This document shows, one piece after another, positions 4,692 through 51,588 of a stretch of 64,000 bases of DNA. Made by a program: the position numbers and the translations under genes. Every line of letters begins with the position of its first letter. Positions within the stretch are counted from its first letter, which is position 1. Under the pieces are notes generated by a model. It was not told where the DNA came from. It ran no database searches and saw nothing but the letters and a program-made list of their open reading frames with translations. This stretch comes from an uncultured Candidatus Peribacteria bacterium (GTDB taxonomy: Bacteria; Patescibacteriota; Gracilibacteria; Peribacterales; Peribacteraceae): the NCBI GenBank assembly GCA_964597665.1, contig CAZQYX010000006.1:1575-65574 (forward strand), written 5' to 3'.

Positions 4692-4839
4692 GGAGTGGTA
4701 GTAAAGATACTTCAAAAGACGAAGAAGGAATCCTTTCCTTACAGGATCCGGCTTGCGCCGAATGTATGCCTCGTAAGAATGCAATGCGTCAGCCGTCTTC
4801 AGATCAGTAAGAGTCCTTCTACTTCTTCCCCATCCTTAT

Positions 4840-5019
4840 ATGGCAGCAGATCTCAAGCAACAAATGAGAGTTCTGGAACAGGAGAAAAGAGATACGGAAG
4901 CACTCCTGAGACAGCAACGCGAAATTCTTCGAAAAGAGAAGGCTCAGATCGCCAGAGAGATATCGCAAATGCACACCCAGCAAAGAGAAGTCTCAAGCGA
5001 ACTTAGTAAGTTGGGCTAG
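4840..5019 (+). CDS. Possible 59-aa coiled-coil protein (below the ORF-track cutoff)
   Basis: ATG 4840 to TAG 5017-5019; MAADLKQQMRVLEQEKRDTEALLRQQREILRKEKAQIAREISQMHTQQREVSSELSKLG; heptad-like charged sequence; followed by a UUCG-capped hairpin; no homology evidence. Confidence 0.3.
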   Translation: MAADLKQQMRVLEQEKRDTEALLRQQREILRKEKAQIAREISQMHTQQREVSSELSKLG

Positions 5020-5125
5020 CGTTCCGTAGATGCCCGGCTTCGCCTTCGGGCTACGCCGAGGCATCCGGCACACTACGAAATCACGGCGTAGTCTCAGCTG
5101 CTTCGAGCAGCTGGACGAAGCCGGA

Positions 5126-9392: not shown

Positions 9393-10316
9393 TTATTTGC
9401 TTTTATGCGCAGGCTCTGTCTCTGGTGCATCTTCTGATGCAGCGACATCAGGCTCCACATACCGTTGTATCAGGCCTTTTTCTTCACCAAAAAAAGTGGT
9501 GACCGTATATTCAGACTTCCCGTCATATTCCACATCGTCATTCAGTTTTGATATTTTTTTTGCATCCCATGTGGAAACGCCTGATAATCCACGTAGAATT
9601 GTACCTTCGATGGTGATCTTCCCGTCTGCGCCCAACATGATCTTTCTTATGAATACCGGGAATCCTCTCGATGTCTGTTGCAACTTTTTTTCGTTCATGA
9701 TGAGAAATGTCTGTCCATCCTTATCCTCAAACTGAAGTGAAGCGAGCTTTTCTTTTCCATCAGGACCCGTGACAGGCGAATAGATGACCTCGCCTTTTTT
9801 AATTTCACCGGGTTGCCTTGTCGTCCAAACGGATTCCGGAATGACAGGCGGTGGAACTCCTGCATCGTGTTCATCAAAAACTGCATCGTCTGAGGCCATT
9901 TTTGCGTTTACGGTTTGTTTAGAGAGTTCTTCATCCTCTTTTTTCTTCTCCTCCTCTGCAATTTTCTTTTGAAGAGCTAGATGGTCATATGCTTTCTGTT
10001 TCGCTGCTTTTTCATTAGATTTTTTTACCTGATGATCGACAGCGAACCCCGCACCAACAACTGCAAGTGTCAGCGTCGCTATAAGTGCAATTCTCTCGGT
10101 TGGCGTTCGCCCAAAATATCCATAACCTTGAAACATGAGTCTTGGATCCTGCTCGTTCGCTAGGACAGTAGTAGGACGCTTCTGACTGGTTGCGACGACC
10201 TGCTGATTCTCACGAACAGGCTTCTTGCGAACAGCTGAATCATCGACGATTTGGGGCTCAGGCTTGGTGCATTCCGTATTTGTTATCGAGCCTTCAGGTT
10301 CGAATCTTTCTTTCAC
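9393..10316 (-). CDS. Hypothetical single-pass membrane protein with Lys/Glu-rich linker
   Basis: 307 aa; one TM (RIALIATLTLAVVGAGFAV); KKIAEEEKKKEDEE linker; globular C-terminal part; no recognised domain. Confidence 0.55.
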   Translation of the reverse strand: MKERFEPEGSITNTECTKPEPQIVDDSAVRKKPVRENQQVVATSQKRPTTVLANEQDPRLMFQGYGYFGRTPTERIALIATLTLAVVGAGFAVDHQVKKSNEKAAKQKAYDHLALQKKIAEEEKKKEDEELSKQTVNAKMASDDAVFDEHDAGVPPPVIPESVWTTRQPGEIKKGEVIYSPVTGPDGKEKLASLQFEDKDGQTFLIMNEKKLQQTSRGFPVFIRKIMLGADGKITIEGTILRGLSGVSTWDAKKISKLNDDVEYDGKSEYTVTTFFGEEKGLIQRYVEPDVAASEDAPETEPAHKSK

Positions 10317-10415
10317 CCTTACAGAGTATCAATAACGCAATTCAAAGCGACTATTTCGCAGACCATAGGGAAAATCTTCGCTAGCTTCTCAGGAAATATT
10401 GCAGAAGAGAACAGA

Positions 10416-11042
10416 ATGAGTACCATTGACCATATGGCATCGCTCGAAGAAGGTAACAATGCCGATGGCGAAGGAAGGAGAACTCCATTTAATAAAAATG
10501 ATAGGCGCATTGTCCAAGTTGCCGGCATCGCATTGCTCTCGTTCATGGGCGTTCTCTGTGAGAGTCGTCCTCGGGAAGCGAAAGTACACAAAGCTTCCGA
10601 GTCACAAAAGCAAGGAGACAAAAATATTTCGGAACAACTACAGACACCTGAGAATAGACTGAATAAACTTGTCTCAAAATGTGTGTCTTCTTGTAAGGGA
10701 GACGATGCTGATCTTCTCTGCGGGCCAATCTGCGAACGACCGCTGAATCCGCAAAAGATTTACAAAGCAGCTCAACAATTATCATCACCTGAAGCACGAG
10801 AGCATATGGTGCTCATTACTCAAGAACTGCAAAAAAATCCTCATCTCGCACCTCATGTTGTTCGTGCGGTACAGCATCACATCGCATCACTTTCATGGAA
10901 GGCTCGCCTTGCAAGCCTTGTGATGCCGACGAACGATCCTGTCTGGTCTGATCAAGGACAAATTCTTAAGACTGCAGAAGGATTTTTGGAGTTGCATGAA
11001 GCTAGGAAAAGAGAAAAAAATATGGTTGAGCCTCAAAAATAA
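10416..11042 (+). CDS. Hypothetical membrane-anchored protein
   Basis: Start trimmed to MSTIDHMASLEE (ATG 10416) to avoid overlap with the divergent gene; one TM (VAGIALLSFMGVL); no recognised domain. Confidence 0.5.
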   Translation: MSTIDHMASLEEGNNADGEGRRTPFNKNDRRIVQVAGIALLSFMGVLCESRPREAKVHKASESQKQGDKNISEQLQTPENRLNKLVSKCVSSCKGDDADLLCGPICERPLNPQKIYKAAQQLSSPEAREHMVLITQELQKNPHLAPHVVRAVQHHIASLSWKARLASLVMPTNDPVWSDQGQILKTAEGFLELHEARKREKNMVEPQK

Positions 11043-11563: not shown

Positions 11564-13204
11564 ATGTCATCCAAGATTCTCACCTTCGGCGACGATGCAC
11601 GCCACAAGATTGTTCACGGCATCAAGAAACTTGCTGACGCAGTCCGCGTCACGATGGGTCCAAACGGCAGGAATGCCCTCATCGCAAAGAGTTACGGTGC
11701 ACCGACCGTCACCAAAGACGGTGTCACGGTCGCAAAAGAAATCGAGCTTGAGGACGCTTGGGAGAACATGGGCGCACAGCTCGTAAAAGAAGCTGCAACG
11801 AAGACGAATGACGCAGCCGGAGACGGTACGACAACCGCAACCGTTCTCGCGGAAGGACTGATCAGCGAAGGATTGAAGTTCCTCACTGCAGGTGCGAATG
11901 CGATCAGCATGAAAAACGGCATCATGAAAGCGGTCGAAGCGGTTGTTGCCGATCTCGATCGTCAGAAGAAGACGATCTCAACCAAAGAGGAGTACGCCGC
12001 AGTCGCAACGATCTCAGCCCAAGACCCTCAGGTCGGTCAGATCATTTCCGAAGTGATGGAAGAAGTCGGATCGGACGGTGTCGTCACCGTCGAGGCAGGG
12101 CAGACAATGGGGCTTGAGAAGGAGTACGTCGAAGGCATGCAATTCGACTCGGGCTACATCTCTCCATACTTCGTGACAGATGCCGCTCGAATGGAAGCGA
12201 TCTACAAGAATGCGTACATTCTGATCACGGACAAGAAAATCGCATCGATTCAGGAGATTCTCCCCATCCTCGAAGCGCTCGCGCAGAAGGGAAAGAAGGA
12301 GATCGTCATCATCTCCGAGAACGTCGAAGGTGAAGCGCTCGCAACCCTCGTCGTGAACAAGATCCGCGGAACATTTTCAGCAATTGCCGTGAAAGCTCCG
12401 GCATTCGGCGACAGGCGCAAGGAAATCCTCAAAGACATCGCAATCCTCACCGGAGGACGTGTGATCAGCGAGGAAGTCGGTCTGAAGCTCGAGAATACGA
12501 AGGTCGAAGACCTCGGACAGGCAGGAAAGATCGTCATCACGAAAGACACAACACTCATCGTCGACGGTGCAGGCTCGAAGAAAGACATCGAAGCCAGAGT
12601 CAGTGAGATCAAGGCGAACATCGAGAACACGAAGAGCGACTTCGACCGCGAGAAATTGCAGGAGCGCATGGCAAAACTCTCCGGAGGTGTTGCCGTCATC
12701 AAAGTCGGTGCCGCAACTGAAGTCGAGCAGAAGGAACTCCAACACCGCGTTGAAGATGCACTCTCCGCCACACGCGCGGCTGCCGAAGAAGGCATCGTCG
12801 CAGGAGGAGGAGCTGCGCTGATCCATGCACTTCGCTCTCTCGAGAAGCTCAAGGGAATCAACGAAGACGAGCAGATCGGTATCGACATTGTCCGCATGGC
12901 ACTCCCCTATCCCCTGAAGAACATCGCAAGCAATGCAGGTCTCGAGGGCTCCGTCATCGTTGAGCATGTGAAGGGCTCGAAAGATCAGAAGATGGGATAC
13001 AACGTCGTCTCGGGCAAAGTCGAAGACCTGATCGCAATCGGCGTCATCGATCCGAAGAAAGTGACGCGTTCCGCTCTCCAAAATGCAGCCTCTGTGGCTG
13101 CCATGTTCCTCACCATCGAAGTCGCCATTGCCGATGCCCCCAAGAAGGACGCACCTGCCATGCCGCAGATGCCGGGAGGAGGTATGGGAGGGATGGATTA
13201 CTAA
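11564..13204 (+). CDS. groEL: Chaperonin GroEL
   Basis: 546 aa; [28 protein letters not shown]-terminal GGMGGMDY tail. Confidence 0.98.
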
Positions 13205-13210
13205 AAAGTG

Positions 13211-13287
13211 TGGTACGTAGGGTAGGTTTGGTAGGTAAAGTCCTGCCAAACCTTCCCAACCTACCGAACCTACCATACTTACCCAAC
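13211..13287. repeat. Family A composite hairpin (GGTAGGT-type arm / ACCTACC-type arm), copy A1
   Basis: TGGTACGTAGGGTAGGTTTGGTAGGTAAAG, loop, CCAAACCTTCCCAACCTACCGAACCTACCATACTTACCCAAC; lies between the groEL stop and the next ATG. Confidence 0.85.
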
Positions 13288-13292
13288 ATGCC

Positions 13293-13484
13293 ATGGACAC
13301 CTCCGAAATTCAGAAGAAGTGCGAGGAATTCCTCGCCTCCACCGGCCTCCCCGGCTTCATCGTCCTCGGTTTCCAAACCGATCCCGAAAACACGCAGATG
13401 GTCTACTCGCTGAAAGATATGCCTCTCAAGGGTGTGGTGAAGGGGCTGACGCATACGTTGAATGATTTGGTGGGAAGGATATGA
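13293..13484 (+). CDS. Hypothetical 63-aa protein bracketed by two family A hairpins
   Basis: MDTSEIQKKCEEFLASTGLPGFIVLGFQTDPENTQMVYSLKDMPLKGVVKGLTHTLNDLVGRI; protein-like composition; same strand as groEL and tmk; no homology evidence. Confidence 0.45.
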   Translation: MDTSEIQKKCEEFLASTGLPGFIVLGFQTDPENTQMVYSLKDMPLKGVVKGLTHTLNDLVGRI

Positions 13485-13486
13485 CG

Positions 13487-13560
13487 AAGGTTAGGTAGGT
13501 TGGGTAAGTAGGGTAGGTTACATACCAAACCTCCCCAACCTACCGTACCTACCCAACCTT
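13487..13560. repeat. Family A composite hairpin, copy A2
   Basis: AAGGTTAGGTAGGTTGGGTAAGTAGGGTAGGTTA, CAT, ACCAAACCTCCCCAACCTACCGTACCTACCCAACCTT; outer ends AAGGTT/AACCTT pair perfectly. Confidence 0.88.
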
Positions 13561-13572
13561 TCTTTCGCTGGA

Positions 13573-14181
13573 ATGAAAACATATACTTATCCCATGTCTA
13601 AAGGTCGCTTCATCGTCCTCGAAGGCCCAGACGGCTCCGGCACAACAACACACAGCAAACTTCTTGCGGAAAGACTGAAGAAGGAAGGACAGAACGTTCT
13701 GCTGACAGCAGAACCGACTGACAGTCCGATCGGAAAATTTATTCGTGAACAACTGAAGCTGAAGACGATTCCGTCTGCATCCGCCTTGCAGCTTCTGTTC
13801 TGTGCTGATCGTGCCGCACACATCGAGACTGTCGTGAAGCCCGCACTCGAAGCCGGAAAAATCGTGATTTCGGATCGCTACGTGATTTCGACTCTCGTCT
13901 ACGGAGAAGCACTTGGACTGGATCCCGATTGGCTTCTTCGCGTAAACACGCCGTTTCTCGAACCTAACGTGATGATGATCGCCCTCCCGTCTTTTCCGGT
14001 CTGTATGGAGAGATTGAAGAAGCGAAGAAAACTCGACGTGTTTGAAAATGCCAAGTTCATGCGCAAGGTTCATGACCTCTATGATCGAGCGATTCACGAT
14101 GATCCGAGCATTCGTCATATCGATACCGAAAAATCGAAGGAAGAAGTTTCGGAGGAAGTATTTGAAGCGGCAATGAAATAA
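13573..14181 (+). CDS. tmk: Thymidylate kinase
   Basis: GRFIVLEGPDGSGTTT P-loop, DRYVIST motif, about 200 aa. Confidence 0.9.
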   Translation: MKTYTYPMSKGRFIVLEGPDGSGTTTHSKLLAERLKKEGQNVLLTAEPTDSPIGKFIREQLKLKTIPSASALQLLFCADRAAHIETVVKPALEAGKIVISDRYVISTLVYGEALGLDPDWLLRVNTPFLEPNVMMIALPSFPVCMERLKKRRKLDVFENAKFMRKVHDLYDRAIHDDPSIRHIDTEKSKEEVSEEVFEAAMK

Positions 14182-14954: not shown

Positions 14955-14980
14955 AAACCACCCACCCGGGTGGTTTTTTT
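14955..14980 (+). terminator. Rho-independent terminator after the Cys-rich gene
   Basis: AAACCACCC ACCC GGGTGGTTT followed by TTTTTT. Confidence 0.7.
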
Positions 14981-16564: not shown

Positions 16565-16692
16565 CGGTCCTCATCCCCTAACCCCTTCTCCATAGGCTGG
16601 AGAAGGGGGAGCCCGTGCTTTTCTCAAAACGAAGCTTCCTCTCTCCAGCCGATGGGAGAGAGGTGGCGCATCAGCGCCGGAGTGAGGACCGT
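16564..16692. other. Cloverleaf-like structured intergenic element filling the folD/mgtE convergent spacer
   Basis: 10-bp outer stem ACGGTCCTCA (16564-73) / TGAGGACCGT (16683-92) encloses three hairpins: CCCCTTCTCC-ATAGGCT-GGAGAAGGGG (16582-16608), CCTCTCTCC-AGCCGATG-GGAGAGAGG (16638-63) and GGCGC-ATCA-GCGCC (16665-78). Confidence 0.6.
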
Positions 16693-19787: not shown

Positions 19788-19923
19788 AAGACGCAAGAGT
19801 GTAGCGATAATTCTTAGCTTGAACAAGGGCAGAAACTCTGTACAATGCATTCATGGTAGGTTCAATCCTTCCATCGGCCTCTTCGATTTTCGCGGAGGCG
19901 TGCTTTGCCGTACTTTCCTAACT

Positions 19924-21429
19924 ATGTGCGGGATCATTGCAGTCTCCGGCTACCGTGACGTCATTCAGGATTTATATGACGGCCTTATCGTGCTCCAGCA
20001 CCGAGGACAGGACGCGGCGGGTATCGTGACATATGACAATCAGTTCCACCTCAAGAAATCTACGGGAATGGTCAGCGAAGTTTTCCACGGAAGTTCTCTG
20101 CAGCGACTGAAGGGACCCATGGGGATCGGTCATGTGCGCTATCCGACCGCAGGCTGCAGTAGCGAATTTGAGGCACAGCCGTTCTTCGTGAACTCTCCGT
20201 TCGGGATGGCGCTTGCCCATAACGGTAACCTCACGAATGCTTCCGAGCTCGCACGCGAGATCAGGGAACAGGATTATCGCCACCTGAATACAAACTCCGA
20301 TTCGGAAGTGCTTCTGAATGTCTTTTCGCTGGCTCTTCGAAAACAGCGGCCGAAAAAGCTGAATCCGGAACATATCTTCCGAGCGGTGAAAACTGTCTTT
20401 CGAAGGTGTAAAGGAGCGTACTCGGTGGTTTCTCTTGTCGGAGGACAAGGCATCGTCGCCTTCAGGGACCCTCACGGCATTCGCCCGCTCCAACTCGGTC
20501 GCAAACGCTACGGTATGAAGTACGAATACATGGTGGCATCTGAAAATACGGTCTTCAAAGCACTGGATTTTGAGTTCGTACGCGACATTGCGCCGGGCGA
20601 AGTCGTCTTCATCGACCGAACGAACCGGCTCCACAGCAGAGTCGTGAAGAAAGGCGATCTGAATCCCTGCATCTTCGAGTGGGTGTACCTTGCAGCTCCG
20701 GATTCCACCATCGACGGTGTGAACGTCTATAAGGCGAGGGTTCGCATGGGAGAAGCGCTGGCAAGACAGATCAAGGCCTCCGGAATTCACATCGACTCGG
20801 TGATCCCGATCCCGGATACCGGTCGCCCCGCCGCGGCGGGACTCGCGGACAAATTGAAGGTCAGGTACCGCGAGGGATTCGTGAAGAACCGTTACATCGG
20901 CCGAACATTCATCATGCCCGGTCAGGAAATGAGAAAACGCAGTTTGAACTTCAAACTGCATCCGATCGATCTTGAATTCAAGAACAACTGTGTGCTCCTC
21001 GTCGACGATTCGATCGTGCGTGGCAATACGAGCAAGAAGATTGTCGAAATGGCACGCAAGGCTGGGGCAAAGAAAGTATATTTCGCTTCGGCATCGCCAC
21101 CGATCATCGGACCCGATCCGTACGGCATCGATCTCCCCACGACCACAGAACTCGTAGCGGCAGATCATACGATCCCCGAGATCTGCAAGATCATCGGCGC
21201 GGACGGTCTTTTCTATACGTCCATTCAGGATCTTCGTAATTCCGTTCGGATCGGAAACAAAAAGATTCATCGCTTCAGCGAAGGATGCTTCACCGGGAAG
21301 TACCCGACACCCGAAGTTACCATGAAGATGCTCCGAAAACTCGGATGTGGTCGTAATGAAACGAGGGAGACTTTTAAGAAAGAAGATGAACAGAATCCGG
21401 ACCAGACGAAGATGATGGCATTGGTATAA
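19924..21429 (+). CDS. purF: Amidophosphoribosyltransferase
   Basis: N-terminal MCGIIAV nucleophile, HRGQDAAGI, PRPP loop VLLVDDSIVRGNTS; start trimmed to the Cys-2 start. Confidence 0.95.
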   Translation: MCGIIAVSGYRDVIQDLYDGLIVLQHRGQDAAGIVTYDNQFHLKKSTGMVSEVFHGSSLQRLKGPMGIGHVRYPTAGCSSEFEAQPFFVNSPFGMALAHNGNLTNASELAREIREQDYRHLNTNSDSEVLLNVFSLALRKQRPKKLNPEHIFRAVKTVFRRCKGAYSVVSLVGGQGIVAFRDPHGIRPLQLGRKRYGMKYEYMVASENTVFKALDFEFVRDIAPGEVVFIDRTNRLHSRVVKKGDLNPCIFEWVYLAAPDSTIDGVNVYKARVRMGEALARQIKASGIHIDSVIPIPDTGRPAAAGLADKLKVRYREGFVKNRYIGRTFIMPGQEMRKRSLNFKLHPIDLEFKNNCVLLVDDSIVRGNTSKKIVEMARKAGAKKVYFASASPPIIGPDPYGIDLPTTTELVAADHTIPEICKIIGADGLFYTSIQDLRNSVRIGNKKIHRFSEGCFTGKYPTPEVTMKMLRKLGCGRNETRETFKKEDEQNPDQTKMMALV

Positions 21430-21432
21430 CTT

Positions 21433-21526
21433 CTCGATACGCGCCTCGAAGGCGCTACTCGAACTGACAGAAACCTTTTTGCTGTGTCAGTTCGAGTAGC
21501 ACGAGCCGCAGCGAGAGCGTATCGAG
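21433..21526. repeat. Long GC-rich composite hairpin (related to the copy at 35823-35909) in the purF-purD spacer
   Basis: Outer stem CTCGATACGC/GCGTATCGAG, inner stem GCTACTCGAACTGACA/TGTCAGTTCGAGTAGC, mini-hairpin GCGCC-TCGAA-GGCGC, U-rich loop. Confidence 0.75.
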
Positions 21527-27095: not shown

Positions 27096-28379
27096 ATGGT
27101 ACAATATGAGACCATTTATTCTCTAATGCGATCTGCTCACTACGACATATTCGGCAATATCATTCTCGACATCGTGGAAGAGAAGATGGTGCAGAATGAA
27201 GAAACTATCTCTGTTGGCATTTCTGACAGAACGACGTGCTTGCAAAAGCAGGGAGATGCATCGTCATGGACTCTCGTTCACGACTCGCCGCGAACAAGCG
27301 AAAGAAAATCTGCTCCGCACGAGCGATTGCATGAGAAGCAGAAGAGTTCGGGGGTCATCAAGAATTTTGGGGAACGCACGAAGCTGGCCATTTCTTCTTT
27401 GCCCGCCGAGAGTGCATCCCAATTCCATGCAACCGCCGGGGAAGTACAATCGCTGATTTCAAGTCTGCGTTCATCCCCTCAAAGAATTCACTCTGCACTA
27501 AGGAGCTTCCTACGGAAGGCAAATACTCCGCTATCCATGCAATCGCTCCTCCCAAAGAGCAAGAAACCCCCTACAAGGCTTCGGCTCTTTCTTGTCGATA
27601 CTGTTCGCTTCGGCGGAACATTCGCCGGTATTTTCATCATTCTCTTTATGGGAATCAACGCCCAGAGCTTCTTCCAGATTGCGAAGGCAGAACTGGCTCT
27701 CGGAGACGATCTGAATACACAGCAAGCGTTGGAAGAGATGGTCACCGGAGTGTCCGGAAGAAGCGAGATGATCGCCACAGACACGATGCGCGAGCAAAGC
27801 GAGTCGGATGTTCTCTCGCTCCTACCGTCCGTCGGTCCTTTCGAGAACAGACTTATTATCCCGAAGCTCGGCAAGAACATACCCATCGTTCGACCGAGCA
27901 TGGACGGACTGATGCAGGAAAACTGGAAGAAGTTTGAGGATGACATTCAATCTGCACTGAAAGGAGGAGTCGTCCATTACCCCGGTTCCGCAAGACCGGG
28001 ACAAGCCGGGAATTTCTTCGTGACCGGTCACAGTTCCTACTACCCGTGGGATGACGGAAGTTACAAAGATGTCTTTGCGAGACTGAAGGACTTACTACCC
28101 GGCGACACGTACTCCGTGTACTACGGAGGCGACAAGCACACCTATCGAATCACTTCAAAGAAAGAAGTGAAACCCAGCGATGTCTCGGTGCTGGACCAGC
28201 CGACTGATCAACGCATTGCAACACTGATGACCTGCACACCGATCGGGACAACGCTCCGTCGCCTGATCGTGATGGCGGAAGAAATTGACCCAACGACCGG
28301 TGAAATACTGACTGTGGGCGAGAAGGCAAAGAAAGATGAGACGACACCGAGGGTGAGGCTGGAGTCGTTGCCAATCTGA
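27096..28379 (+). CDS. Sortase-family transpeptidase with about 165-aa N-terminal cytoplasmic extension and one TM
   Basis: GNFFVTGHSSYY (His), ATLMTCTP (TLxTC Cys), TLRRLIV (Arg); TM FGGTFAGIFIILFMGI. Confidence 0.75.
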   Translation: MVQYETIYSLMRSAHYDIFGNIILDIVEEKMVQNEETISVGISDRTTCLQKQGDASSWTLVHDSPRTSERKSAPHERLHEKQKSSGVIKNFGERTKLAISSLPAESASQFHATAGEVQSLISSLRSSPQRIHSALRSFLRKANTPLSMQSLLPKSKKPPTRLRLFLVDTVRFGGTFAGIFIILFMGINAQSFFQIAKAELALGDDLNTQQALEEMVTGVSGRSEMIATDTMREQSESDVLSLLPSVGPFENRLIIPKLGKNIPIVRPSMDGLMQENWKKFEDDIQSALKGGVVHYPGSARPGQAGNFFVTGHSSYYPWDDGSYKDVFARLKDLLPGDTYSVYYGGDKHTYRITSKKEVKPSDVSVLDQPTDQRIATLMTCTPIGTTLRRLIVMAEEIDPTTGEILTVGEKAKKDETTPRVRLESLPI

Positions 28380-28499
28380 GGTTGGGTAAGTTTGGTATGT
28401 AGGGAAGGTTTGGTAAGTAAAAAAGTTAATGTAGAGAACGTAAGTTTTACGATGAATCTCCTGCCACAGGTACCTAACCTACTGTACCTACCCAACCTC
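28379..28499. repeat. Family A composite hairpin with about 50-nt loop, copy A3
   Basis: GAGGTTGGGTAAGTTTGGTATGTAGGGAAGGTTTGGTAAGT ... GGTACCTAACCTACTGTACCTACCCAACCTC; outer 9 bp are perfect; fills the convergent spacer between the sortase and EamA genes. Confidence 0.8.
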
Positions 28500-29692: not shown

Positions 29693-29693
29693 C

Positions 29694-29724
29694 GAAGCAG
29701 AGTTTGCCGCGGCAAACACGCTTC
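29694..29724. terminator. Hairpin between the tRNA-Leu 3' end and the convergent asparaginase gene (possible bidirectional terminator, no T-run)
   Basis: GAAGC AGA GTTTGCCGCGGCAAAC AC GCTTC. Confidence 0.4.
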
Positions 29725-29737
29725 ATGGCACCGCCAC

Positions 29738-34281: not shown

Positions 34282-34360
34282 TGGGGCGAGCGACGGGACT
34301 CGAACCCGCGACCCTCTGGACCACAACCAGATGCTCTAACCAAACTGAGCTACGCTCGCC
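34282..34360 (-). tRNA. tRNA-His (anticodon GTG) with encoded G-1 and CCA
   Basis: Reverse complement G GCGAGCG TAGCTCAGTTTGGTTAGAGC ... TCTGG TTGTGGT CCAGA ... CGCGGGTTCGAGTCCCGT CGCTCGC C CCA. Confidence 0.9.
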
Positions 34361-34435
34361 ATAGGATAACGCTAAAGAACAAACCTGTTTGCGCGGGGAT
34401 TGTAGCGGAAAATCCTTTCAGGTACACTCACCTGC

Positions 34436-35791: not shown

Positions 35792-35822
35792 TTACAAAAG
35801 AGGAAAGGGAGCCGTCTCATGC

Positions 35823-35909
35823 TTCGAGACGCGCTCGCTAACGCTCACGCTCCTCAGCATGACAGCTTAAGGATATGTCACGGTGAGGAGCACCGCAGTG
35901 CGTCTCGAA
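35823..35909. repeat. Long GC-rich composite hairpin, second copy (related to 21433-21526), in the hisS/gyrB convergent spacer
   Basis: Outer stem TTCGAGACGC/GCGTCTCGAA, inner stem GCTCCTCAGCATGACA/TGTCACGGTGAGGAGC; upstream CGTCTC (35813-18) can alternatively pair with GAGACG. Confidence 0.75.
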
Positions 35910-35944
35910 CCGTAACGAAGCAGCCTGCATTTTTCAGAGGTTCA

Positions 35945-38071
<2,127 letters not shown>

Positions 38072-38226
38072 TCAGCTTGAGATAGATTTGACATAAGTAA
38101 TAGTATATTGATTGATAATATTTGTTGTTTGGTGTAAACTATTGTTGTGTTCTGAATGGGTTCACCCCGCAGTCGCACGTGCGACTCACCCCATCTAAGA
38201 ATGCCTTGGCACAAGGAGTAAGAGCC

Positions 38227-38427
38227 ATGTTAGTTCTCAGTCGAAAGCTGAACCAAGAGATTCGCATTGCCGAGAATATCGTCGTGCGAATAATCGGCAT
38301 CAAAGGCAACCAGGTTCGCCTGGGAATTATTGCCCCGTCCGAGGTTCCGGTACTGCGTGAGGAACTCACGACAAAGGTACCGAAGCCTAGAGCTTCAGCT
38401 TCCCGAGAACAAAGGGCCAATCACTAA
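38227..38427 (+). CDS. csrA: Carbon storage regulator CsrA
   Basis: MLVLSRKLNQEIRIAENIVVRIIGIKGNQVRLGIIAPSEVPVLREEL; AAGGAG 6 nt upstream of the ATG; start trimmed from the ORF-track 38122. Confidence 0.9.
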   Translation: MLVLSRKLNQEIRIAENIVVRIIGIKGNQVRLGIIAPSEVPVLREELTTKVPKPRASASREQRANH

Positions 38428-38474
38428 CATGAATGGCCCACTACCCAATCTCAGCATTGGCTGGGATACAAGAT

Positions 38475-38555: not shown

Positions 38556-39071
38556 ATGCCAACCAACCCACCCGCTGCAGGCTTCGTCGAAAGTGAAGAC
38601 ATGCTCATTACCAAAGAGGGTCTGAAAAAAATTAAGGAAGAGCTCGAGTTTCTCAAAACAACCAAGCGCCTCGAAATCGCGCAGCGCCTGAAGGAAGCGA
38701 TTTCGTACGGAGACCTCAGTGAGAACGCCGAGTACGAGGAAGCCAAGAACGATCAGGCATTCATCGAAGGACGCATTCTGGAACTCGAGAAGCAGATCAA
38801 GAACGCCAAGCTCATTACGGAGAATATCGTCTCCAAGTCGAAGAGCAAGACCATCGACATCGGCTCCGTTGTCACGGTACGAAACAAAACCGATAACGAC
38901 GAACCCGAGACCTACACGATCGTCGGCAGCATGGAAGCAGATCCCATCGAGCATAAGATTTCAAACGAATCCCCAATCGGCAAAGCGCTTCTCATGCGTG
39001 AGAAGGGGGACATCGTCGACGTCGTCGCTCCGGCAGGGAAGTTTAAGTATGAGATCCTGAAAGTAGCGTAA
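38556..39071 (+). CDS. greA: Transcription elongation factor GreA
   Basis: ITKEGLKKIKEELEFLK..., GDLSENAEYEEAKNDQAFIEGRI; start at MPTNPP (38556) or MLITKEG (38601). Confidence 0.9.
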   Translation: MPTNPPAAGFVESEDMLITKEGLKKIKEELEFLKTTKRLEIAQRLKEAISYGDLSENAEYEEAKNDQAFIEGRILELEKQIKNAKLITENIVSKSKSKTIDIGSVVTVRNKTDNDEPETYTIVGSMEADPIEHKISNESPIGKALLMREKGDIVDVVAPAGKFKYEILKVA

Positions 39072-39073
39072 CA

Positions 39074-39144
39074 GAAGTATGTAGTAAGAAGTAAAAAGTA
39101 AGAATAGAATTGTCTTACTACGTACTACTTACTTCGTACTACTT
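39074..39144. repeat. Family C composite hairpin (GTAGTAAGAAG-type arm / CTTCTTACTAC-type arm), copy C1
   Basis: GAAGTATGTAGTAAGAAGTAAAAAGTAAGAA, TAGAATTG, TCTTACTACGTACTACTTACTTCGTACTACTT; begins 3 nt after the greA stop and ends 3 nt before ATG 39148. Confidence 0.85.
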
Positions 39145-39147
39145 TGC

Positions 39148-40546: not shown

Positions 40547-40590
40547 TGTACCTTCCAAACCTACCACACCTACCAAACCTACCGTACCTT
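40547..40590. repeat. Family A half-site (ACCTACC-type arm only, no partner arm)
   Basis: TGTACCTTCCAAACCTACCACACCTACCAAACCTACCGTACCTT in the divergent spacer between holA and the dockerin gene. Confidence 0.75.
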
Positions 40591-44266: not shown

Positions 44267-44523
44267 ACATGCAAGAAGAGAAAGAACGTATTTCGCTGCG
44301 TGAGTGTATGTGAAGCAATCAGATTATTCAATTTATACAAAACCTTTGTATAGCATTAAGGCTCAGACGAATCTGAGCCTTATATGGTTGGCCAATACAA
44401 GATTGGTTACTTCCTACTTTACCACTGCAAACTCTTACTGTCAATTCGGTACAGAATGCTTGCTTGTGCTCGCAGGGGGTCTTCTCTAGAATTCGGTCCA
44501 TCTACTTCTTCCCCTTTTATCCA

Positions 44524-44688
44524 ATGATCGTTCAATCACACGTCAAGGAAACTCTTTCGAAGATGGGTCTTCGCTGCGGCGGCGACTTCTGCGACGCTCT
44601 CGCCAAGTCTTGCGAGGATCTCGTCAAGAAGGCTGCATGGCGCTGCAAAGAGAACAAGCGTCAGACGGTTTACGGATGTGACTGCTAA
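44524..44688 (+). CDS. Hypothetical 54-aa Cys-containing protein (possibly histone-fold/DUF1931-like; uncertain)
   Basis: MIVQSHVKETLSKMGLRCGGDFCDALAKSCEDLVKKAAWRCKENKRQTVYGCDC; own canonical terminator downstream; sits in an AT-rich 250-nt spacer. Confidence 0.45.
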   Translation: MIVQSHVKETLSKMGLRCGGDFCDALAKSCEDLVKKAAWRCKENKRQTVYGCDC

Positions 44689-44702
44689 TCTGAGAGATTT
44701 AC

Positions 44703-44740
44703 AAAAGGTCATCTCTGTCGAAAGACAGGATGGCCTTTTT
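44703..44740 (+). terminator. Rho-independent terminator
   Basis: AAAAGGTCATCTCTGTC GAAA GACAGGATGGCC TTTTT. Confidence 0.65.
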
Positions 44741-44747
44741 AAGTGTC

Positions 44748-44845
44748 GTAGGTTGGGTAGGTTCGGTAGGTGAAAATGCGATCAATCCCAGATTCAGTTC
44801 ATTTTACCTACCAAACATACCAAACCTTCCAAACCTACCCTACCT
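44748..44845. repeat. Family A composite hairpin, copy A5
   Basis: GTAGGTTGGGTAGGTTCGGTAGGTGAAAATG ... CATTTTACCTACCAAACATACCAAACCTTCCAAACCTACCCTACC; central 14 bp perfect (GGTAGGTGAAAATG/CATTTTCACCTACC-type pairing); ends 1 nt before the permease stop. Confidence 0.82.
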
Positions 44846-46063: not shown

Positions 46064-46184
46064 GAGGTATGGAAGGTTTGGTAGGTTGGGTAGGAGGTGT
46101 CGAAATGATGATTACTTGGTGCAGTATACGTTTCTTGTCCATACCTCCCCTACATACCAAACGTACCAAACCTACCCAACCTTC
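46064..46184. repeat. Family A composite hairpin with about 40-nt loop, copy A6, between the two permease cistrons
   Basis: GAGGTATGGAAGGTTTGGTAGGTTGGGTAGGAGGTGT ... ATACCTCCCCTACATACCAAACGTACCAAACCTACCCAACCTTC. Confidence 0.8.
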
Positions 46185-47409: not shown

Positions 47410-47413
47410 GATG

Positions 47414-47510
47414 AGAAGTAAGTAGTATGTAGTAAGAAGTAAGAATAATAGGGGAAAACTTTGATGAGTTGCAGCAACATTCGTACTACTTGCTTCTTAC
47501 TACTTACTTC
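47414..47510. repeat. Family C composite hairpin, copy C2, between the ABC ATPase and the first permease
   Basis: GAGAAGTAAGTAGTATGTAGTAAGAAGTAAGAA ... TTCGTACTACTTGCTTCTTACTACTTACTTC; shares the 19-mer AGTATGTAGTAAGAAGTAA with C1; the right arm covers the ATPase stop codon. Confidence 0.82.
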
Positions 47511-48235
47511 AAAGTCTCCTTCTGTCCCGCGATCACCCTCTTAAAATCACTTGAGTCACTCACGATACGGCCGTCTTTGATATGGATGATGCGACTTGCG
47601 TGCTCTGCCGTTGTTCTTTCATGGGTCACCAGAATGATGGTATGGCCCTGATCATTGAGTTTCTGAAGCACCTCCATGACGGCAACTCCCGAAGCGGAGT
47701 CGAGGTTTCCGGTCGGCTCATCGGCAAAGATAATATCCGGATTCGTCACGAGAGCGCGCGCGATGGCAACTCGTTGCTTCTGGCCACCGCTCAGCTGACT
47801 ACTGAGGAATTCTTTCCGATCAGAAAGCCCTACAAGAGCGATCGCCTTCAGTGAGCGTTCCTCACGCTCCGATACGGGAATCGTCGGATGATAGAGGAGC
47901 GGAAGCAGAACATTCTGGAGAACGGTCGTGCGCGGCAAAAGATTGAATGCCTGAAAAACGAAACTCACTCTGGTTGCTCGGATCCTCGCCAATGCATCAT
48001 CGGTAAGATCTTTGGTCGGTTCTCCCTGAAAGAGATAGTCACCGGACGTGTGGGAATCGAGAAACCCCAGAATGTGCATCAGCGTGGATTTTCCGGAACC
48101 CGAAGGACCCATGATCGCGACGAATTCACCGCGCAAGATGCTCAGATTGATATCGAAGAGCACCGGGGTGACAACACCGTCACTCTCGTACGATTTGAAC
48201 AGTGCGCGGGTCTCGATAAGTGAAGATTGTGACAT
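47504..48235 (-). CDS. ABC transporter ATP-binding protein (MacB/LolD type)
   Basis: [10 protein letters not shown] Walker [16 protein letters not shown] signature, [12 protein letters not shown] Walker B. Confidence 0.93.
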
Positions 48236-51528: not shown

Positions 51529-51588
51529 GTTGGGTAGGTTTGGTAGGTGGGGTAGGTAAAACTTACCAAACCTACCCTACCTACCACA
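51529..51588. repeat. Family A composite hairpin with minimal loop, copy A7
   Basis: GTTGGGTAGGTTTGGTAGGTGGGGTAGGTAAAA CTTACCAAACCTACCCTACCTACCACAC; the ORF-track N-terminus of ftsK (MVGGVGKTYQTYPTYH) is a translation of it. Confidence 0.85.

Follow-up and report, generated by a model that had tools for sequence, protein, structure and literature searches.

A stretch of 64,000 nucleotides from a Candidatus Peribacteria genome (Peregrinibacteria, candidate phyla radiation, CPR), referred to below as the window, has been analysed for hairpins that lie in the spacers between genes and have arms built from tandem copies of a short unit. The window carries at least three families of such tandem-unit hairpins: family A with a 9-nt unit (GGTAGGTNN), family B with a 7-nt unit (AGAAGTA) and family C, also with a 7-nt unit (AAATTCC). 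Two family A copies flank a 63-codon open reading frame (ORF), ORF63, between the genes groEL and tmk. The hairpins belong to a kind of element that has already been described, as GGGAATC array pairs in Xanthomonas and as hairpins formed by the short tandemly repeated repetitive (STRR) sequences in cyanobacteria. In the Peribacteria the architecture and the position of the element are conserved, while its sequence is replaced quickly and in jumps. The explanation that we prefer, with about even confidence, is that these are palindromic families born by replication slippage and copied between spacers, which would act as barrier or processing stems at mRNA 3′ ends.

The GC-content of the host is about 50%. 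The groEL protein was found on the Logan assemblies of three runs, and these separate assemblies of the same organism (L001–L003) are identical base-for-base to the window over 5.8–8.5 kb across the hairpin locus; the hairpins are therefore not assembly noise. The gene map was built from ORFs, Pfam matches and the gene calls of the assemblies. Coordinates are collected in Table 1.

In family A, the C-poor arm consists of GGTAGGTNN units, each with a 7-nt core and two variable linker bases, and the opposite, G-poor arm of NNACCTACC units. The core GGTAGGT is matched 25 times in the window, counting both strands, compared with 1.91 ± 1.20 times in dinucleotide shuffles, and none of 100 shuffles reached this count. 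The family comprises six hairpins with a G-arm and a C-arm, and one lone arm. The positions given for all of these in a preliminary description of this DNA hold, and every arm has a period of 9 in Tandem Repeats Finder (TRF). The arms are paired by an inverted-repeat finder, and a C-arm follows within 130 nt downstream of 6/6 G-arms, with a chance expectation of about 1.4% per arm (7 C-arms in 64 kb); the co-occurrence of the two arm types as inverted pairs above chance, on which that description depended, is thus real.

The arms contain 2.7–4.6 tandem copies in families A, B and C (TRF), with an autocorrelation at the unit period of 0.65–0.92, and are 81–91% complementary in register. All ungapped hairpins of the window with arms of at least 20 nt (7/7) are periodic at 7 or 9 nt. 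All family A copies fold better than their shuffles on both strands (z from −2.5 to −5.6), a comparison that the preliminary description had proposed. Single arms, folded as single-stranded DNA, have a minimum free energy (MFE) of about 0 for 12/12 arms of both types and show no self-complementarity, so that the only fold is that of arm against arm. For the two copies next to ORF63, the arm architecture described earlier is borne out by the sequence: the G-type arm contains a single C in A1 and none in A2, and A2 closes with AAGGTT...AACCTT. The loop of 3–5 nt claimed for both does not hold for A1, where the effective loop by pairing is about 22 nt because C-arm units outnumber G-arm units.

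Table 1. Tandem-unit hairpins of the window and genes of the groEL–tmk locus. Paired values of MFE and z are separated by a slash; negative gaps are overlaps.
Feature	Coordinates	Strand	Sequence features	Position relative to genes	MFE (kcal/mol)	z
groEL	11564..13204	+	PF00118			
Hairpin A1	13211..13287		about 3 GGTAGGTNN units, then 5–6 NNACCTACC units	between groEL stop and ORF63 start; gaps to flanking genes 6 and 5 nt	−34/−36	−4.5/−3.5
ORF63	13293..13484	+	conserved 63-aa protein	directly after groEL		
Hairpin A2	13487..13560			2 nt past ORF63 stop, then TTTCTTTCG		−4.3/−5.6
tmk	13594..14181	+	PF02223	TATACT box at 13582–13587, 6 nt before ATG		
Hairpin C1	23590..23668		7-nt units AAATTCC / TTGGAAT, C-type arm first	fills convergent spacer before prfA stop		−7.5/−5.9
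Hairpin C2	24738..24822		inverted relative to C1			−5.4/−7.7
Hairpin A3	28379..28499		loop about 50 nt	fills spacer of convergent sortase (+) and EamA (−) genes; gaps −1 and 2 nt		
Hairpin B1	39068..39146		7-nt units AGAAGTA / TACTACT	between greA and next gene		−3.7/−2.8
Lone family A arm	40547..40590		C-type on + strand (G-type in holA sense)	divergent spacer, 14 nt upstream of holA start		
Hairpin A4	44748..44845			1 nt past stop of FtsX gene (minus strand)		
Hairpin A5	46064..46184			fills 121-nt spacer between two FtsX cistrons (minus strand); gaps 2 and −2 nt		−5.0/−4.1
Hairpin B2	47412..47512			between ABC ATPase and FtsX cistrons		−5.5/−5.2
Hairpin A6	51529..51588		short loop	15 nt past YgjP-like gene		
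Hairpin C3	61458..61530		family C			

Copies within a family are related in a way that goes beyond a shared unit. B1 and B2 have the same irregular order of unit variants, sharing GTATGTAGTAAGAAGTAA, with loops of about 10 and about 32 nt, respectively. C1 on the plus strand and C2 on the minus strand align from end to end, loop included (about 75 nt), with 27/27 identical positions in the right arm, a string that C3 also has. Such an irregular order common to copies of a family indicates that they are dispersed repeats related by copying, and not the product of independent local slippage at different loci. In family A, 7/13 arm ends begin with (A/G)AGGTTGGGTA at the outer end and continue with (G/A)G; the tetranucleotide GTAG occurs in all units of family A and in many of family B. 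In family A, the arms pair almost as well when displaced by one unit as when in register. The G-poor arm comes first in family C.

The hairpins follow gene ends. Of the spacers of at least 40 nt located after a gene 3′ end, 12/29 contain a tandem-unit hairpin (9/22 co-directional and 3/7 convergent), compared with 0/10 divergent spacers of this length (Fisher p = 0.017), and the earlier characterization of the element as gene punctuation is supported to this extent. Within the window, family A is represented in divergent spacers by the lone arm alone. For the elements in these 12 spacers, gaps range from −16 to +15 nt on the stop side and from −19 to 481 nt on the start side, and 7/12 leave no more than about 6 nt of spacer free at either side. 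Non-coding placement close to stops and starts, also claimed previously, is confirmed, each family A copy having at least one end that overlaps a stop or start codon by up to 2 nt or lies up to 15 nt away from it.

The stems are 21–35 bp long and AT/GT-rich, with loops of up to about 70 nt. A scan for terminators with a GC-stem and a T-run found 31, 21 and 24, compared with about 19 expected per 20 kb, which is the background level. It picked up no family A or B hairpin, and within family C only the inner 5-bp loop-proximal stem of C1 (23621–23638, both strands) and a 13-bp stem in C2 (24792–24759). The only clear canonical terminators in intergenic regions of the window are at 14955–14976 and 44709–44741. 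T-rich tails follow only A2, A3 and C1. From genome to genome, canonical terminators show a weak trend towards complementary use, which is no more than suggestive.

The spacers on both sides of ORF63 were compared in relatives (synteny loci from NCBI assemblies). Between groEL and ORF63, a classic intrinsic terminator is the only structure in L119/L120, L122 and L126; in L121 and L208 it is followed by a GAATTAT-unit hairpin, and L207 has a GAATTAT-unit hairpin inside which its contig starts. The GGTAGGT hairpin is found in the window and L124, a GGCAGGAA-unit hairpin in L125 and a CAGGTTT-unit hairpin in L211/L212. Four unrelated unit families thus occupy one orthologous spacer across the Peribacteria. 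The spacer between ORF63 and tmk holds a GTGCGAAA-type hairpin in L122 and L124, a GAATACAAA-unit hairpin in L125 and GC-rich palindromes in L121, L207 and L126, and is almost missing in L119, L208 and L211. The comparison of orthologous spacers that had been proposed earlier revealed both presence/absence and unit-family differences. No such element was found in 17–20 kb of L119 and L126. The G-arm comes first in 8/9 unit families seen in Peribacteria, the exception being family C.

Replacement can be followed between close relatives. L124 and L125 share 93.7% identity over 13.8 kb and match exactly as far as the stop and start codons, and their spacers are non-alignable. In L122 and L124, the tract of ORF63, hairpin and tmk (10001–10873 in both) is 90.7% identical, with 104/106 identical positions in the spacer, and the neighbouring genes are only 75–79% identical. 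Judging by this pattern of identity, it is probably a recent recombination tract. For the region of A4, A5 and B2, a metagenome scan for orthologues with the FtsX protein gave only matches of at most 41% identity.

The family A unit is not confined to the lineage. When one genome per species was scanned for three GGTAGGTNN units in a row, at least 115 stretches were obtained (L004–L118), whose taxon labels are the titles of metagenome-assembled genomes (MAGs). Among the matches listed, non-coding G-arm-first hairpins were found in Prevotellaceae (L004, L073/L100, L114) and Acidobacteriota (L014, L026, L027, L068, L094), which contradicts the earlier view of the element as lineage-specific. Most non-coding hairpins of other phyla are located tight against a gene end, and those of L073 and L100 fill convergent spacers to 2–19 nt. 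The latter two represent the same locus in two Prevotella species, since their flanks are reverse complements, with arms of 11/5 and 7/7 units, respectively. The lone arms of L032 and L043 are in divergent spacers, as is the arm upstream of holA. The statement that the G-type arm is always 5′ is true of every intergenic GGTAGGT-type copy examined, including those of other phyla; among the matches listed, the only C-arm-first cases, L005 and L039, are inside ORFs of more than 1000 aa. In L064, a perfect 22-bp palindrome lies within the loop of the family A hairpin; it is similar to a perfect 16-bp hairpin (GCTACTCGAACTGACA...TGTCAGTTCGAGTAGC) in the purF–purD spacer of the window (21455–21500), absent from the orthologous spacer in L119.

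Most genome and viral matches to three GGTAGGTNN units are lone arrays in long ORFs, so that the non-coding hairpin is less widespread than pattern matches by themselves would suggest. A stop-to-stop test for spanning ORFs flagged most lone arrays as open frame; this test calls too many arrays coding, since some frames of a period-9 repeat are free of stops, and the context of start-anchored ORFs was used instead, which places L005, L039 and L042 inside long ORFs. From their codons, the lone coding arrays are probably coding repeats of the Pro-Thr or Gly-X-Y type. The 57 IMG/VR matches (L213–L269) consist almost entirely of lone arrays within ORFs; non-coding pairs are present at three loci. 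A phage origin of the element was ruled out, as arrays in viral contigs are almost always coding. It was also considered whether G-first polarity could result from self-priming fold-back of G/T-rich arrays through G.T pairs; this was ruled out because no arm folds alone.

The preliminary description knew of no family with tandem-unit arms; two described systems contradict it. In Xanthomonas, arrays of the heptamer GGGAATC are 89–93% intergenic and are located on average 28 nt from the upstream ORF, and each genome has 70–75 convergent array pairs, one array per strand, with the potential to form stem-loops (Rehm et al. 2015, PLoS One, PMC4692102). These arrays vary in length and sequence among close relatives, the single or paired type being preserved, and groES is among the associated genes (PMC4692102). 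The arms in the window are likewise convergent, intergenic arrays of a short G-rich unit, nearer to the upstream ORF, and the elements of the window and of Prevotella vary in length and sequence between close relatives. Unlike in Xanthomonas, the unit of family A is 9 nt long, several unrelated unit families coexist in one genome, the units have only GG runs without strong G-quadruplex potential, the host is a small CPR bacterium, and unit families are replaced wholesale at orthologous sites. In cyanobacteria, spacers such as that between hupS and hupL contain STRR heptamers that form hairpins and have been proposed to act in transcript stability, termination or translational coupling (PMC2670836). 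Families B and C resemble them in their 7-bp units, their location in intergenic and intercistronic spacers and their ability to form hairpins; units and lineage differ, and the window arms are paired and inverted, whereas most descriptions of STRRs are of direct arrays, and only a minority of those in Nostoc are inverted pairs (PMC4692102). Abundant intergenic TAACTGA repeats occur in Beggiatoaceae (PMC4679880), and a paper on five complete Peribacteria genomes makes no mention of such elements (PMC4736985). All four features tested for intergenic inverted repeats armed with simple sequence repeats (SSRs) are present in the window elements.

Resemblance to other classes of repeats is partial. 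The window elements are short, located at gene ends, hairpin-forming and GTAG-containing, as are repetitive extragenic palindromic sequences (REPs) and the bacterial interspersed mosaic elements (BIMEs) composed of them. A REP is an imperfect palindrome of 20–40 nt next to GTAG, a tetranucleotide conserved in REPs, and is associated with a REP-associated tyrosine transposase (RAYT), whose gene usually has REPs on its flanks. REPs and BIMEs are abundant, strictly extragenic, placed singly or as inverted pairs after genes, and stabilise the upstream mRNA in known cases. The window arms, by contrast, are tandem arrays without palindromic structure and do not fold individually, and membership among REPs therefore fails. 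The description as REP/terminator-like accordingly stands only in its second half, and there for position: classic terminators occupy the groEL–ORF63 spacer in L119, L122 and L126, and the role as terminator is doubtful for several copies, since a T-run is missing from most and A5 and B2 lie within an apparent operon. With MITEs (non-autonomous transposable elements of miniature size with inverted repeats, which affect transcripts; Correia, RUP, BOX, ERIC) the window elements share their small size, dispersal, location at gene ends and arms in the manner of terminal inverted repeats. They differ from MITEs in having no target-site duplication, no recognisable parent insertion sequence and periodic arms that are resized by units. 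A CRISPR array was ruled out, in line with the preliminary description: the units are 7–9 nt long, contiguous and in inverted arms, and CRISPR arrays consist of 23–50-nt direct repeats with unique spacers of similar length. In a Rfam scan of the window only tRNAs reached the gathering threshold, and the 20–30-bit matches of the hairpins to microRNA precursor models in permissive mode (cut-offs 69–100 bits) are noise.

According to the explanation that we prefer, tandem arrays would arise and be resized by replication slippage, the inverted copy would be made by template switching, and finished palindromes would be copied between spacers by recombination, gene conversion or some enzyme. In a compact genome, only insertions at gene boundaries would survive. 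The 21–35-bp stem would form right after the stop codon in transcripts from either strand and may serve as a 3′-end barrier or processing structure, namely as a block to exonucleases, a substrate of an RNase III-type enzyme or a weak terminator, taking the place of the GC-stem/U-tract terminators of relatives. In E. coli, REPs act as mRNA 3′-end barriers and processing sites. Several observations weigh against this explanation, the functional part of which we infer. Target-site duplications were not found in the flanks of the 7 family A copies, nor a transposase among the 50 window proteins scanned, and slippage alone does not explain why the same 7-mer core recurs in three phyla. The hairpin of L113 lies in a divergent spacer. 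Most copies have no U-tract, which is lacking after A1, A4, A5 and A6; A5 and B2 lie between genes of what appears to be an HlyD-ABC-FtsX-FtsX operon, a place in which a strong terminator would do harm; and terminator counts are only modestly higher in hairpin-poor relatives. Three units of the left arm of C1 carry an identical T>G change, uncompensated on the opposite side and therefore producing regularly spaced bulges. No compensatory substitutions were demonstrated in the stems, and no strand-specific G:U signature was found, the more stable strand agreeing with the direction of transcription in only 5/9 co-directional cases; the earlier remark that mismatches could pair as G:U in RNA carries no weight, and selection on an RNA stem is unproven.

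This lack of a G:U signal and of compensatory changes makes a purely neutral origin a serious rival: slippage and template switching would generate functionless palindromic microsatellites that are tolerated after stop codons. Debris of this kind would be expected to show the uncompensated periodic mismatches of C1, the very rapid turnover, in which a single site carries unrelated units, the different lengths of orthologues (L073 and L100) and the absence of the element from L119 and L126. We nevertheless regard it as a possibility well short of even, because the 10 divergent spacers of at least 40 nt are unoccupied although equally non-coding, local slippage would not give a unit order common to copies at different loci, a classic terminator is replaced by a hairpin at the same site, and the G-arm comes first in nearly all Peribacteria unit families and in all intergenic copies of other phyla. 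It is rather improbable that the hairpins are mobile DNA of the REP/REPIN or MITE type, mobilised in trans by a transposase (a RAYT or another) whose gene lies elsewhere in the genome. The non-palindromic arms do not fold alone, target-site duplications are missing, resizing by whole units is the behaviour of a microsatellite and not of a transposon, and no transposase, RAYT (Y1) or other, was found among the 50 window proteins scanned (the preliminary description had likewise noticed none nearby) or, for about 130 kb of loci from relatives, in precomputed Pfam tables. The case for mobility consists of the dispersed multi-copy families with conserved outer ends, the GTAG of the units, the single arms and inverted pairs with variable spacers, resembling the organisation of REPs and BIMEs, and the filled and empty sites of a different palindromic element at folD/mgtE.

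A role as strict intrinsic, bidirectional terminators would suit the position of the hairpins right after stops and between convergent genes, the classic terminators at the orthologous site of relatives, the T-rich tails of three copies and the scarcity of canonical terminators elsewhere in the window. We consider it very unlikely: intrinsic terminators have a GC-rich stem of about 5–14 bp, a loop of 3–8 nt and a U-tract, and long low-GC stems with large loops, mostly without a U-tract, are far from this consensus; moreover, L121 and L208 have a classic terminator besides the hairpin. Such a role is unlikely for the intra-operon copies and those without a U-tract. The idea of G-quadruplex or i-motif regulatory repeats, hardly credible here, derives from the GG runs of GGTAGGTNN, which are 2–3 nt apart and formally constitute two-tetrad motifs, and from the precedent proposed for the Xanthomonas and Nostoc heptamers (PMC4692102). 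Two-tetrad quadruplexes are weak and would compete with the complementary arm, and families B (AGAAGTA) and C (TTGGAAT) as well as several units of relatives are incapable of forming them, with the same architecture and placement.

The start codons downstream of the hairpins were also considered. In a set of 85 Peribacteria genes (gene calls of the window, L119, L121, L124 and L126), only 6 have a motif similar to the Shine–Dalgarno (SD) sequence, the 30 nt upstream of the starts are G-poor (17% compared with 26% genome-wide), and many genes have a TANNNT box ending 6–8 nt before the start codon. These features suggest that leaderless mRNAs are widespread in Peribacteria. In A1, B1, A5 and B2 the next start is only 1–5 nt past the G-poor arm, and the hairpin of L124 is equally close. 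A stronger form of processing can be envisaged, to which we assign a very small probability: the stem, extending over the entire spacer between stop and start codon, would be excised or cleaved by an RNase III-like activity, the upstream 3′ end would be protected, the downstream mRNA would be leaderless from its AUG, and the G-first order would have been selected convergently. The G-poor arm would then face the next start because native initiation regions are G-poor, and the G-arm-first order of GGTAGGTNN hairpins in Prevotellaceae and Acidobacteriota would reflect convergent selection and not chance. Distances from hairpin to start of 26–61 nt in A2, A6, C3, L121, L125 and L211, within an overall range from 1 to more than 60 nt, show that a strict punctuation geometry is not a rule. 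As a functional analogy only, the intercistronic RNase III sites of phage T7 and the tRNA punctuation of mitochondria also consist of a structured RNA element that occupies the gap between cistrons and sets the ends of mRNAs, and the lineage, like mitochondria, appears to use leaderless, SD-less mRNAs; in contrast to both, cleavage is only hypothesised here and the distance between hairpin and start is variable. If true, such punctuation might, speculatively, be a bacterial analogue of the mitochondrial one.

ORF63 is a genuine conserved Peribacteria-specific gene. It has 45 homologues with 71–97% identity, 44/45 of them exactly 63 aa long, and the only organism-named one is from Candidatus Peribacteria. 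The alignment is gapless with 22 invariant columns, and the synteny groES-groEL-ORF63-tmk is kept in every relative fetched. The predicted fold is alpha-beta-beta-alpha, with a moderately confident pLDDT of 77, and no significant PDB fold match and no Pfam family were found. A possible role is that of a partner, specific to the lineage, of the chaperonin operon. The bracketing of ORF63 by hairpins, stressed in the preliminary description, does not make it a cassette: an integron-cassette or attC-like reading was ruled out by the synteny, which is conserved whatever flanks the gene, and the spacers are simply hot spots for hairpin elements. In L126, a gene for a DUF559 protein (Vsr-like endonuclease) and 330 nt of GC-rich palindromes are inserted between ORF63 and tmk (10525–10824), which again marks this spacer as an insertion hot spot. 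The TATACT box before tmk is kept in L122, L124 and L125, and also in L211; from its position, tmk probably has its own promoter and a leaderless mRNA.

Palindromes distinct from families A–C were found as well. The convergent spacer of folD and mgtE is filled in the window (16567–16690) by a GC-rich nested palindrome with outer arms of approximately CCTCATCCCCTAACCCCTTCTCC and inner GGGAGAGAGG/CCTCTCTCCC and GCGCATCAGCGC hairpins. The two genes overlap or are at most 8 nt apart in L119, L122, L125 and L126, and this contrast of filled and empty sites makes the palindrome MITE-like. GC-rich nested palindromes also occur in L121 (14925–15075), in the ORF63–tmk spacer of L121 and L207, in L126 (10193–10524) and in L209/L210.

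Several other spacers are predicted to be structured. A conserved structured leader is located upstream of purF at about 19845–19925 in the window, 15645–15720 in L119 and 17985–18060 in L121. Its sequence, TGTACAAT.CATTCATGGTAGGTT...CCTTCCATCGGC.TCTTCG...GCGGAG.CGTGC, contains a stray GGTAGGT at 19855; it had no Rfam match, even in permissive mode, and is a candidate purine-pathway riboswitch or attenuator. A 480-nt ORF-free stretch between tRNA-Tyr and A4 (44267–44747) ends in a terminator-like hairpin on the plus strand (44709–44741, GTCATCTCTGTCGAAAGACAGGATGGCCTTTTT); the spacer, including A4, folds with z = −5.0, and the stretch may hold an unannotated small RNA. Repeat-free spacers with z from −2.9 to −3.5 are found at 748–1125, 4785–5125, 29693–29737, 34360–34435, 35792–35944 and 38045–38432, two of them 340–380 nt long and adjoining tRNA genes. 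These may represent divergent non-coding RNAs missed by Rfam.

No function or origin has become accepted in the decades since intergenic tandem-repeat hairpins such as STRRs and the Xanthomonas heptamers became known. The CPR genome studied here provides a compact natural experiment, with coexisting families, exact filling of spacers, terminators as alternatives, replacement at about 94% identity and a G-arm-first polarity shared with unrelated phyla, in an apparently SD-poor lineage. In practical terms, the hairpins give rise to spurious ORFs (LPNLPN..., read-through extensions of neighbours) and to breaks in MAG assemblies. If the stems do not define mRNA ends, they offer a clean case of the turnover of bacterial palindromic microsatellites. 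If they do, this would explain how transcripts are delimited in some terminator-poor, SD-less bacteria, and the older observations on STRRs and SSRs would gain a function.

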